DNA from: Oligoflexia bacterium
GTDB taxonomy: Bacteria; Bdellovibrionota; UBA1018
Assembly (NCBI GenBank): GCA_963758495.1
Contig: CAVWVI010000002.1
Span: 32,001 to 96,000, forward strand
Length of the DNA stretch: 64,000 nucleotides
Direction of reading: 5' to 3'
In this document: piece by piece, positions 46,054 through 48,531 of the stretch
Numbering within the stretch: the first letter of the stretch is position 1
Layout of the letters: each line of letters starts with the position of its first letter
Program-made: the position numbers and the translations under genes
Notes under the pieces: model-generated
Database searches by the model: none
What the model saw: the letters and a program-made list of their open reading frames with translations, nothing else
Told to the model about the DNA's origin: nothing

Positions 46054-48531
46054 ATGGATTTTGCTTCTTTCCCACTTTTTCGCAGCGGTTTCATACGTGT
46101 CAGTCTGCTTTGTTTGGGGATGTCCCACGCTGGATTTGCGGGTGAAGTTGGAAGGGCATTGATTGAAGCGATTAAAAGCAAAGATCACGCACGTGCGCGA
46201 CAACTCCTTGAGCCCTTAAAATCAGCAGATCGAAAGCCTCGGGCTTTTCTCAATGAAGAAGTGGAAAATGATGGCAAGTCTCTTCTGATTTTGGCGCTGG
46301 AGGGGGGAGTTCGAGCGGATATTTTAAGGCTTCTTTTGGATCAAGGAGTTGATGTGAATCTAGCGGATCGCGAAGGTAAAACTCCGCTGATTCTTGCCGC
46401 TCAAAAGGGTCAGTTTGAACTGATGCAGGTTTTTTTAAAAAGAGGCGCCCAGATGAATCATCAAGACAGGATGGGCTGGACAGCACTTACTCAATCATTA
46501 GTATCAGCAAAAACTGAACAAGATCAATTTAGGTTTTTGAAGCTTTGTATAGAAAACGGTGCCGAGCTGGATTCTCTATTCCCTGGAGATCGGAGTGCTT
46601 ATGCGGATTCGCGGAGTTATGATCGGTTTCATGATCGTTCTATTCTGGTTTGGGCCATTGAGACGAATGCACTTCGATTAGCTAAGTACCTTCTTTCCCT
46701 AAAGAAATCTGCCACAGGGGCAAGTCAATTCAGCGAACAAGTCTTTGTCAACCAACTTGATGGACGTGGAAGGACACCCTTAATTCAAGCGGCTGCATCT
46801 GCTTCCTTTGATTGGATTAAAACTCTTTTAGACAGTGGAGCGCATGTGACCGCTGAGGATCACTTGGGTTGGACTGCTTTGAGCCAACTCATGGCTCATT
46901 CGTCAGGATCAACAGATTTTCCAAGTTTTCCAAGTTTAAAAGAAGAGCAAGTGAAATGGATGAAGGTTTTCTTGGAAAAAGGAGCCAATCCATACCAAGG
47001 ATTTCCGTTAGATGAAGCTGCTTATTTAAATCGGAAGGATGGGGATGGATTTCGAGGGCACACCCTGCTGACGTGGGCAGTGGAGAATGATCGAGCTGAC
47101 ATTGTTTTAGTTTTACTTGAGCATGGAGTGGATCTAGGGCCTCTTCAACCCTTATTGATGTCTGCCATGGATCGAGGGAACTTGGAAATAGTCAAGCTCA
47201 CAGCGCAAAGGGGTGTACAACTCTGTCCGAAAGAATCGATTCACCCCAGCGAGCATACCCCTCTGACACTGGCTATCGAAAAAGGCAAAGTAGAGGTAGT
47301 GAGATTCATTTTAGATTTTGTCTCAAGCGCAGGAACAGCTCCCATTACACTAGATCGATGTCATTTAAATGCACTCGGCAAAGAGGGCTTATCGGCTCTC
47401 GGGTGGGCAGCAAAAATGGGAAATTTCCCCGTAGCCCAACTTCTTGTGGATCACGGAGAGGCGCAGTATTTTGGAGCCTCCGAGTTAAGAAAAATTCTGG
47501 AGATGGCCAGACAAGGCTCGCATATCCCGCGAATGATGACCGCAAAGTGGATTAAGTTTTTCGCATTGACTCAAACGGCGTCAAACTTGAACGAGATTTT
47601 GAATCTTAAATCAGAGTGCATGCTCACGTTTGAAGGGGCACAAACTGAGAATGAACTTCCGGATTTTAGCGCGAGTGTGAGCCAACTTAAAAACTTGATG
47701 AATTTAAAGGCCAGAAAACTTTATTACATAGAGCGCGAATTGGAAATCCAACGCCAGTCTCCAGTCGCCATGGAGGTGGATGAAGCTTCCCGAATCACGG
47801 ATGAACCCCTCACTAAAAGAAGGAGAATCGACTCTAGGACGATTCAATGCGTGGCTTGTCTGGACGAGCTTCCTTCTGTGAAGAGAGGTGAGCTAGGCCC
47901 CTCCGGTTGTTCCTGTTCTCTTTGTGAAGATTGCGCTCCCAGTTATTGTGACATGATCATCCATCGAGATGGAGAAGATCTGAGTCTGTGTCCAGGCTGT
48001 AAAAACCCACTCCATTCCCAGTATCTGGTTCAACAGGGTCGAACTGAAGAAGAAGTTGAAAAGATCAGAAGTCGAATTGTGGATCAAGTGAATGCACGGC
48101 AACAGGGCTGGGTATTTTGCCCGTGTGCAGGTTGTGCGGGTGGACGAGTGCTTCAGCCAGATGAGAAATCCGCGTATTATTCCTGTTTTTTATGCGGCCA
48201 CGAGGGATGCATCCGATGTGGGAAAGAGCATCAAGGTGAATGCTCTCACTATGAGAAACAAATGAAGGGAGTTGAGAACCTTCTTCGATTAGGTGCTGAA
48301 GCTCCTCTAGAGAATCGCCCGTCTGATGAAAATCATCCCGATTATTACAAGGGTAGGTTTCGGCCATGTTATCATTGCGGCGTGATCACCGAGAGGTCAG
48401 AGGGATGTAATCAGATGATTTGTAGCCGCTGCAACGAGAAATGGGATTGGAATAATGGCCCCGAGGGTCGAAATGGCGATTACACACGCGGTGAAATGAG
48501 GTTTACCCCCTTAAAGCCGCCTCATTTTTAA
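46054..48531 (+). CDS. Secreted ankyrin-repeat protein with C-terminal RING-IBR-RING (RBR) E3-ligase-like module
   Basis: Signal peptide (GFA|GE); multiple ankyrins; RING1 CVAC..CSCSLCEDC..CPGC; IBR FCPCAGC..CFLC..CIRC..H..C; Rcat RPCYHC..ERSEGCNQMICSRC. Confidence 0.82.
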   Translation: MDFASFPLFRSGFIRVSLLCLGMSHAGFAGEVGRALIEAIKSKDHARARQLLEPLKSADRKPRAFLNEEVENDGKSLLILALEGGVRADILRLLLDQGVDVNLADREGKTPLILAAQKGQFELMQVFLKRGAQMNHQDRMGWTALTQSLVSAKTEQDQFRFLKLCIENGAELDSLFPGDRSAYADSRSYDRFHDRSILVWAIETNALRLAKYLLSLKKSATGASQFSEQVFVNQLDGRGRTPLIQAAASASFDWIKTLLDSGAHVTAEDHLGWTALSQLMAHSSGSTDFPSFPSLKEEQVKWMKVFLEKGANPYQGFPLDEAAYLNRKDGDGFRGHTLLTWAVENDRADIVLVLLEHGVDLGPLQPLLMSAMDRGNLEIVKLTAQRGVQLCPKESIHPSEHTPLTLAIEKGKVEVVRFILDFVSSAGTAPITLDRCHLNALGKEGLSALGWAAKMGNFPVAQLLVDHGEAQYFGASELRKILEMARQGSHIPRMMTAKWIKFFALTQTASNLNEILNLKSECMLTFEGAQTENELPDFSASVSQLKNLMNLKARKLYYIERELEIQRQSPVAMEVDEASRITDEPLTKRRRIDSRTIQCVACLDELPSVKRGELGPSGCSCSLCEDCAPSYCDMIIHRDGEDLSLCPGCKNPLHSQYLVQQGRTEEEVEKIRSRIVDQVNARQQGWVFCPCAGCAGGRVLQPDEKSAYYSCFLCGHEGCIRCGKEHQGECSHYEKQMKGVENLLRLGAEAPLENRPSDENHPDYYKGRFRPCYHCGVITERSEGCNQMICSRCNEKWDWNNGPEGRNGDYTRGEMRFTPLKPPHF

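Follow-up and report, generated by a model that had tools for sequence, protein, structure and literature searches.

RBR ubiquitin ligase-type proteins encoded in a Bdellovibrionia genome and the BTB-lectin gene beside them

The closest described relatives of the gene reported here are the eukaryotic RBR ubiquitin ligases, among them parkin, HHARI (ARIH1), HOIP and RNF216. HOIL-1 (RBCK1) has Trp two residues after the catalytic Cys (position +2), a C-terminal His, His510, serves the second step of transfer, and the H510A variant stalls as a thioester (PMC9834252), while RNF216 is active and makes chains without a +2 His (PMC7458406). Human ARIH1 primes substrates of the cullin ligase CRL3-KCTD5 (PMC11047111). 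Here we describe an ankyrin-RBR gene (Ank-RBR) and the gene that follows it, in a stretch of 64,000 nucleotides (the window; positions 32,001 to 96,000 of contig CAVWVI010000002.1, assembly GCA_963758495.1) from an uncultured relative of the predatory Bdellovibrio, a metagenome-assembled genome (MAG) of Bdellovibrionia (3.66 Mb, 92% complete, 2.1% contaminated).

According to an October 2026 review, no bacterial counterpart of the HECT, RBR, RCR and RZ ligases has been identified (PMC13720258), a gap that an expanded and selected bacterial RBR family could fill. In the parts of other papers that deal with the subject, F-box, U-box and deubiquitinating proteins of parasitic bacteria are listed and IBR is not (PMC4327156), BTB domains were in 2014 known among bacteria only from Chlamydiae, with RBR or IBR unmentioned (PMC4209131), and the RBR passages of PMC11354881 contain no bacterial RBR. 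Two effector papers use "IBR" for an "in-between region", which is not the RBR domain, and were set aside. We found no description of a bacterial RBR in the literature searched, where a mention in a supplementary domain table could have escaped.

The Ank-RBR protein shares with eukaryotic RBRs the domain order, the IBR ligands, the first Rcat zinc site, the catalytic Cys, the helix before Rcat and the fold, and differs in its bacterial gene, signal-peptide-like N-terminus, all-Cys RING1 and missing second Rcat zinc site, in an identity of 14-26%, and in having no Ariadne, Ubl or RING0 domain by Pfam. HOIL-1, the top structural match, likewise lacks a +2 His and has a rebuilt C-terminal Rcat half ending in His (PMC9834252), but its tail is a Zn2/Cys6 cluster whereas the bacterial tail has no Cys. 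ANKIB1 also carries ankyrin repeats ahead of its RBR, but has two of them, adds Ariadne and UIM domains, and is reported to act through RING1 (PMC12992118). Giant-virus RBRs (Fadolivirus, Klosneuvirus, Yasminevirus) are a further case of the fold outside eukaryotic genomes, although with 17-20% identity in the top rows, and ARIH1-CRL3(KCTD5) sets an RBR alongside a BTB substrate adaptor (PMC11047111), a pairing that may recur here, where both partners would be bacterial and the Ariadne domain is missing. Bacterial ligase effectors (SnRING, LubX, NleG and RavN; SopA/NleL and SidC; the chlamydial F-box and BTB families) resemble this system in combining repeat domains with ligase or adaptor domains of eukaryotic type, in their expansion, and in a bacterium without an E2 of its own (PMC13720258, PMC4209131), but none is an RBR, and they come from pathogens and symbionts rather than from a lineage known for preying on bacteria.

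Architecture, fold and active site of the Ank-RBR protein

Judged by its architecture, modelled fold and catalytic Cys, the gene product is an RBR, and not one of the canonical parkin/Ariadne type. A signal-peptide-like start, ankyrin repeats, a helical linker and a basic run precede RING1, IBR and Rcat, which follow in this order within one chain. Residues are numbered from the TTG at 46015 (838 aa), and 13 is to be subtracted for the likelier ATG at 46054 (825 aa). RING1 has an all-Cys set of ligands (C612, C615, C632, C634, C637, C640, C659, C662) and not C3HC4, IBR holds two zinc sites (C702, C707, C724, C727, C732, C735, H739, C743), and Rcat binds through C785, C788, C803 and C806, with C798 (codon 48406) at the catalytic position. 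Family counts refer to an alignment (A1) of 61 rows, the window protein and its 60 top homologues, all of which keep three of the Rcat zinc ligands, whereas 60 keep the fourth. The homologues were found among 1.84 billion representatives (174 matches at E 0.001, 63 at 1e-10; 150 listed), and most of those listed have no taxon record. A helix with a conserved L-L-x-x-G stands before Rcat (model residues 146-163) as a candidate for the helix with which RBRs bind donor ubiquitin, an Ariadne domain was not found by Pfam, and the protein stops 32 residues past C806. Promoter and terminator scans stayed at chance level.

At the sequence level, Pfam IBR (E 6e-4) and IBR_2 (E 5e-5) both match below the family cut-offs, which may explain why the named relatives carry no annotation beyond that of ankyrin proteins. 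An alignment search of PDB sequences gave matches dominated by ankyrins; the best PDB sequence match is louse parkin (E 3e-5, residues 10-215), with the catalytic loops in register and Cys798 aligned with parkin's catalytic-position Cys. The AlphaFold2 model of the RBR module, built on the 61-row alignment, reaches a predicted local distance difference test score (pLDDT) of 93, the tail being modelled above 90, and all 41 rows listed by Foldseek against the PDB are RBR ligases, with HOIL-1 first (8eaz, E 7e-10) and ARIH1, HOIP, parkin, ARIH2 and RNF216 among the others. We observe the same families at the top of the VIA-align ranking (HOIL-1, 7yui, Z 6.9; then ARIH2, the RING domain 1wim, HOIP, parkin and HHARI; Z 6.9-5.0), with Z values kept at a middling level by movement of the domains relative to one another. 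RING1 by itself superposes on HOIP RING1 bound to UBE2L3 (7v8f; Z 6.3, root-mean-square deviation (rmsd) 3.8 over 87 residues) and Rcat on HOIL-1 RING2 (9egv; Z 4.7, rmsd 2.6 over 63 residues). Giant-virus RBRs rank first in a viral structure library, and the named look-alikes in the Atlas are eukaryotic IBR/RBR clusters only (0.91-0.93). The ligands, the parkin match, the model confidence and the Foldseek rows thus confirm the ordered RING1, IBR and Rcat Cys patterns that the original prediction had read from the sequence.

The catalytic Cys, which binds no zinc in RBRs, is found in 61 of 61 rows although neighbouring positions vary, and so passes the test of conservation on which that prediction had staked its case. 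Position +2 is Ser in 14 rows, Ala in nine, His in eight, Gly in eight, Thr in five, Gln in four, Asn in four and something else in nine; within the same genome the paralogs have Gln, Ala, His and Gly, one of them keeping His. With Gln800 the window protein has no Cys-His-Glu/Gln triad built on a +2 His, a triad that RBR membership does not require. The change from His to Gln had been singled out as special; since only 8 of the 61 rows have His and the position is free across the family, Gln is ordinary variation, and we rejected it as a meaningful substitution.

The second Rcat zinc site had been called degenerate, and it is indeed absent here, with no Cys after C806; the trait is, however, not peculiar to this protein, being shared by all rows, which have a conserved aromatic tail instead. 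WDWNN begins at 48442, where FCWxC is usual, and the position of the first ligand of the lost site is occupied by His (40), Asp (13), Asn (5), Glu (2) or Ser (1), while W812, N813 and G815 are conserved in 57, 55 and 57 of the 61 rows. Among the 55 complete tails, 38 end in His plus a hydrophobic residue (five rows were set aside as short, one of which does carry the His), and this ending, by analogy, perhaps recalls HOIL-1, which makes it a lead only. Some 60 sequences that keep the catalytic Cys, drop the second Rcat zinc site and mostly drop the triad His amount to a natural experiment on which features an RBR requires.

A basic run before RING1 had further been taken as a nuclear localization signal. 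At least four basic residues within the 60 aa before RING1 occur in only one of 58 homologues (P0006, the closest, 78% identical), compared with a background of 1.1% of 60-aa windows, and a looser basic pattern in five of 58, compared with 5.5%. None of the other paralogs in the genome has the run, and the secreted-type proteins encoded there show no enrichment of motifs of this kind, so that the case for a targeting signal is weak and nuclear targeting as a family trait was rejected. The runs of the window protein and P0006 do resemble classical monopartite signals, so this orthologue pair may be imported into the nucleus.

Distribution, selection and descent of the family

The gene is a single open reading frame (ORF) without introns, trmFO (over the NCBIfam cut-off) and xerC-like genes lie close to it on the 128-kb contig, and its named homologues come from MAGs of Bdellovibrionia and Bdellovibrionales, which together bear out the claim of an RBR module in a bacterium. 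RBR genes stand at seven loci in the genome, surrounded by bacterial housekeeping genes, on four contigs that range in length from 128 kb to 1.7 Mb: the window gene, a tandem pair on contig C3 (one copy broken by a stop codon and without ankyrins), one each on C5 and C1, and two divergent genes on C4 that have a C3HC4 RING1, a Pfam IBR match over the cut-off and no +2 His. Within the class, 7 of 127 genomes matched an RBR profile, and in a sample of 401 genomes from the phylum 5 did so (at most seven candidates scored per genome in the phylum sample), all of them in the window genome's family.

The RBR module is under purifying selection, with ratios of nonsynonymous to synonymous divergence (dN/dS; Nei-Gojobori, over the RBR region) of 0.11, 0.13, 0.14 and 0.16 in the only four pairs with dS below 2, other pairs being near or at saturation. 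A quick, unrooted tree built from 128 RBR regions places all 27 canonical proteins, a parkin among them, on one side of a branch with an SH-like approximate likelihood ratio test support (SH-aLRT) of 96, and a second tree, built without the Rcat tail and without three of the rows, separates 16 MAG-derived rows from the canonical rows plus the C4 pair (support 91). Because the branches are long and there is no root, the trees show an old and diversified family and name no donor; no donor lineage emerged from either. The C4 pair, distant from everything, may represent a second acquisition. No viral copies of the family were found in IMG/VR with the one pattern searched.

Several observations on members of the family stand apart from these results. 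The C4 genes (loci L045 and L046; C4:41198-42973, minus strand, and C4:226894-228534, plus strand) represent a second RBR subfamily with relatives in genomes G096 and G118, laid out as signal peptide, coiled coil, C3HC4 RING1, IBR, Rcat with an insertion and a further C-terminal domain. Eleven proteins (P0068, P0070, P0075, P0081, P0090, P0094, P0098, P0128, P0142, P0143, P0151) form one RBR clade (SH-aLRT 99) whose members lack the second zinc site, share a conserved tail of another kind and, in those viewed, have no signal peptides; they are possibly from another bacterial group, and neither names nor a metagenome locus were found for them. Nested in the bacterial side of the tree are P0056, P0065, P0071 and P0072, of which P0065 contains stretches of poly-Gln and poly-Gly and lacks a signal peptide, sequence features that suggest a eukaryotic or viral host and perhaps a transfer out of bacteria. 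The relative G025 has clustered RBR genes (C176:7871-15282 and C219:3571-6344), several without ankyrins by Pfam, and is RBR-positive with no zf-RING_2 match. For P0002, P0004 and P0005, the precomputed Pfam family PF28177 is listed; our local Pfam copy gave no such match.

The BTB-lectin gene downstream of the RBR genes

The gene that follows Ank-RBR (Table 1) has a C-terminal domain that matches Pfam FGE-sulfatase and an N-terminal domain for which Pfam, BTB_2 included, gave no match. The AlphaFold2 model of the N-terminal domain is of low confidence (pLDDT 60), and on this model 20 of the 21 top VIA rows are BTB, POZ or KCTD structures by title (best Z 7.0, rmsd 3.5, 94 residues); Atlas leads are BTB and Skp1, at 0.86 or less. 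The domain is assigned a BTB/POZ fold on that pLDDT-60 model, and as modelled the protein's anatomy is that of a CUL3 substrate adaptor, which makes the neighbour of the RBR genes a likely adaptor gene for a host cullin and its product, which the original prediction had passed over, a second candidate substrate receptor beside the ankyrins. At all seven loci with known context in the subclade of the window gene, a BTB gene lies 9-98 bases downstream of the RBR gene (four loci in the window genome, one each in G118 and G086, which belong to other genera, and one on metagenome contig L042), and the 75 family genomes contain ten BTB matches, eight of which belong to RBR-BTB arrays. With a narrow profile, no BTB match was found beside 13 more distant RBR loci, several with flanks of only 1.5 kb, or beside the C1 and C4 paralogs.

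The tip of the lectin-fold domain is more variable than its body. Over the last 32 codons, amino acid identity to three paralogs is 47-59%, compared with 65-84% in the body (59% versus 84% for the nearest paralog), and 19 of 23 base changes in the tip fall at codon positions 1-2, compared with 35 of 72 in the body. The best PDB match is 5vf4 (E 0.0014), the variable protein TaqVP of a diversity-generating retroelement (DGR; PMC6328139). In this genome, 92% complete, no DGR template repeat was found, all similar stretches differing at many non-adenine sites, nor was a DGR-type reverse transcriptase, the five reverse transcriptase matches lying in 437-579-aa frames that resemble those of group II introns; an active DGR behind the tip was rejected for want of a template repeat. 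Further FGE-type lectin-fold genes or fragments with the same variable tip and no BTB-profile match occur at C1:219711-223366, C4:396916-397860 and C3:865565-865665. After the partner gene, window positions 49784-49830 hold a short dispersed repeat resembling repetitive extragenic palindromes or miniature inverted-repeat transposable elements, often in inverted pairs, whose halves have 58 and 32 genome copies at up to three mismatches. Just upstream of the RBR-BTB-BTB array on C5 lie insertion-sequence genes (C5:146211-151320; IS21-like and IS66-like by eye).

Table 1. Positions of the Ank-RBR gene, its parts and the partner gene in the window
Feature	Position	Strand	Remarks
Ank-RBR gene	46054..48531	+	825 aa from ATG 46054; 838 aa from TTG 46015
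Probable Sec signal peptide	46054..46140	+	weak: hydropathy 1.97; clearer in paralogs
Ankyrin repeats	46159..47457	+	Pfam Ank_2 E 3.5e-49, 7 stretches
Basic run PLTKRRRID, resembling a nuclear localization signal	47806..47832	+	common only to closest homologue P0006
RING1, predicted E2-binding domain	47848..48000	+	eight Cys ligands, each in 53-60 of 61 rows
IBR, both zinc sites intact	48118..48243	+	eight ligands, each in 54-61 of 61 rows
Rcat first zinc site	48367..48432	+	Cys798 48406-48408, Gln800 48412-48414, motif EGCNQM
Tail in place of second zinc site	48442..48528	+	W-[HD]-W-N-x-G, aromatic-proline stretch, end His837-Phe
Partner gene	48585..49787	+	signal peptide, BTB/POZ-fold domain 48687-49022, FGE-type C-type-lectin-fold domain
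Variable tip of partner lectin-fold domain	49674..49769	+	like variable region of DGR target proteins

Proposed host-directed ubiquitination and alternative readings

The gene content suggests a genome equipped to manipulate eukaryotic ubiquitin. The zf-RING_2 profile matches 15 times, twice in RING1s of the C4 RBRs and mostly in proteins with signal-peptide-like starts; we count about 14 RING genes and 85 Ank_2 matches. RING genes occur in 6 of 7 RBR-positive versus 3 of 68 RBR-negative genomes of the family, which we give as a pattern with no test, because kin are not independent. An E2 profile that recovered 6 of 6 held-out E2s at 3e-30 or better found nothing under E 1 in 13,850 ORFs; UQ_con and HECT matched in 0 of 75 family genomes each, with their positive controls silent, so that the E2 profile carries this point. 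By eye, none of seven short ORFs ending in Gly-Gly was ubiquitin-like. Scored with our own crude hydropathy heuristic (not SignalP; cut-off 1.9), 40 of 51 long family members have a hydrophobic N-terminus, compared with 2 of 27 canonical RBRs, and GspC, D, E, F and G of type II secretion are all over the NCBIfam cut-offs. FHIPEP is represented by one gene only, in a flagellar cluster, and TrbI by one, in an apparent conjugative element.

From the fold, the invariant catalytic Cys, the purifying selection and the genomic context we infer, at a probability of roughly 0.65, an exported transthiolating RBR ligase that would act on the ubiquitin system of a eukaryotic host and borrow the host's E1, E2 and ubiquitin. 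The host cell would most likely be a protist, infected or preyed on, and the protein would leave the bacterium by Sec and then type II secretion, which would place the bacterium inside or tightly against that cell. RING1 would bind the host E2~ubiquitin, and ubiquitin would pass to Cys798 as a thioester and then to a substrate chosen by the ankyrins, the neighbouring BTB-lectin protein or both; the +2 His would be dispensable for the first step, and the rebuilt tail, perhaps through its terminal His as in HOIL-1, would serve the second. This would point to an unrecognised eukaryote-associated lifestyle inside Bdellovibrionota.

Several observations weigh against such a ligase. RING1 has Cys where RINGs usually have His, and 15 of the 61 rows carry neither a +2 His nor a terminal His, so that a HOIL-1-like base is not general. 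The signal peptide of the window paralog is marginal (1.97 on the same scale), and some 20 zinc-binding Cys would have to cross the oxidising periplasm. Neither type VI secretion (VipB) nor an injectisome marker was found in the genome. Since type II secretion delivers nothing by injection, the bacterium itself must reach the host cytosol or nucleus. ATP/ADP translocase is a common mark of intracellular symbionts, and no full-length gene for it was found, with short partial matches only, in 6 of 75 other genomes. At 92% completeness, an E2 could moreover be unassembled.

In an extension that overlaps with the exported ligase, RBR and BTB-lectin protein would form one machine, host CUL3 being recruited through the BTB domain and the substrate, once selected by the variable lectin tip, being primed with ubiquitin by the RBR. 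The BTB gene at 7 of 7 subclade loci, in three genera and one metagenome contig, the KCTD BTB domains among the best fold matches and the precedent of ARIH1 with CRL3-KCTD5 (PMC11047111) speak for it, but the Ariadne domain that ARIH1 contributes there is missing from the bacterial protein, and any cullin coupling would therefore work differently. The missing BTB matches at the 13 distant loci and the C1 and C4 paralogs, the low confidence of the BTB model (pLDDT 60, Z 7.0) and the chance that adjacency only reflects co-duplication of one effector cassette leave us tentative about this machine. To a similar degree we are doubtful of the wider picture, a branch of the Bdellovibrio lineage that has exchanged bacterial prey for eukaryotic cells and ships an RBR with a remodelled active site together with a BTB adaptor, its variable tip antibody-like, that recruits host CUL3, as a bacterial counterpart of the partnership between ARIH1 and cullin ligases. 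If the pairing is functional, it would be a bacterial hijacking of cullin ligases, of which we found no description in the literature searched. Rather unlikely, in our view, is that ubiquitin is taken on Cys798 but passed poorly or to non-lysine acceptors, so that the protein would lower ubiquitination in the host, either by draining E2~ubiquitin or by forming esters. In favour of this, HOIP and HHARI use the +2 His in the second step, HOIL-1 H510A stalls as noted above, and the family keeps the Cys, not the His, and has lost a zinc site by which other RBRs shape the binding of the acceptor. The diversity of the N-terminal binding modules and the repeated duplications, however, are better explained by substrate targeting than by a general drain, and RNF216 makes chains without the His.

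That RING1 alone works, as a RING-type ligase with a dispensable Rcat, is what has been reported for human ANKIB1, which relies on RING1 and not RING2 (PMC12992118), and the Rcat here lacks half of the canonical structure. Yet Rcat is conserved to the same degree as any part of the module, Cys798 and three ligands being invariant and the fourth present in 60 of 61, and we consider this reading quite improbable. Still less credit goes to a role in a ubiquitin-like system inside the bacterium, or no ubiquitin role at all; bacterial E1- and E2-like enzymes exist in other roles (PMC4327156) and the genome is incomplete, but no E2 was found, no short Gly-Gly ORF looked ubiquitin-like by eye, and signal-peptide-like N-termini run across the family. 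Mis-assembly of eukaryotic or viral DNA into the MAG has next to no weight with us: the G+C content is 46-47% near the gene compared with 41.6% for the contig, and the named Atlas look-alikes are all eukaryotic, but against these stand the seven loci on four long contigs amid bacterial housekeeping genes, the occurrence of the family in six other MAGs, the lack of introns and the trees, in which the MAG rows group separately from canonical RBRs. Contamination was rejected on the seven loci and their bacterial neighbours, trmFO included.

Two further observations concern other signal-peptide-like proteins of the genome. C1:160632-164468 encodes, in tandem, three paralogous RING proteins, each about 240 aa long and with a signal-peptide-like start. 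In the window itself, positions 40162-43125 (plus strand) encode a 987-aa protein in which a signal-peptide-like start and an N-terminal region without an assigned domain are joined to 31-residue HEAT repeats that are near-perfect; judged by these features, it is probably another exported protein.

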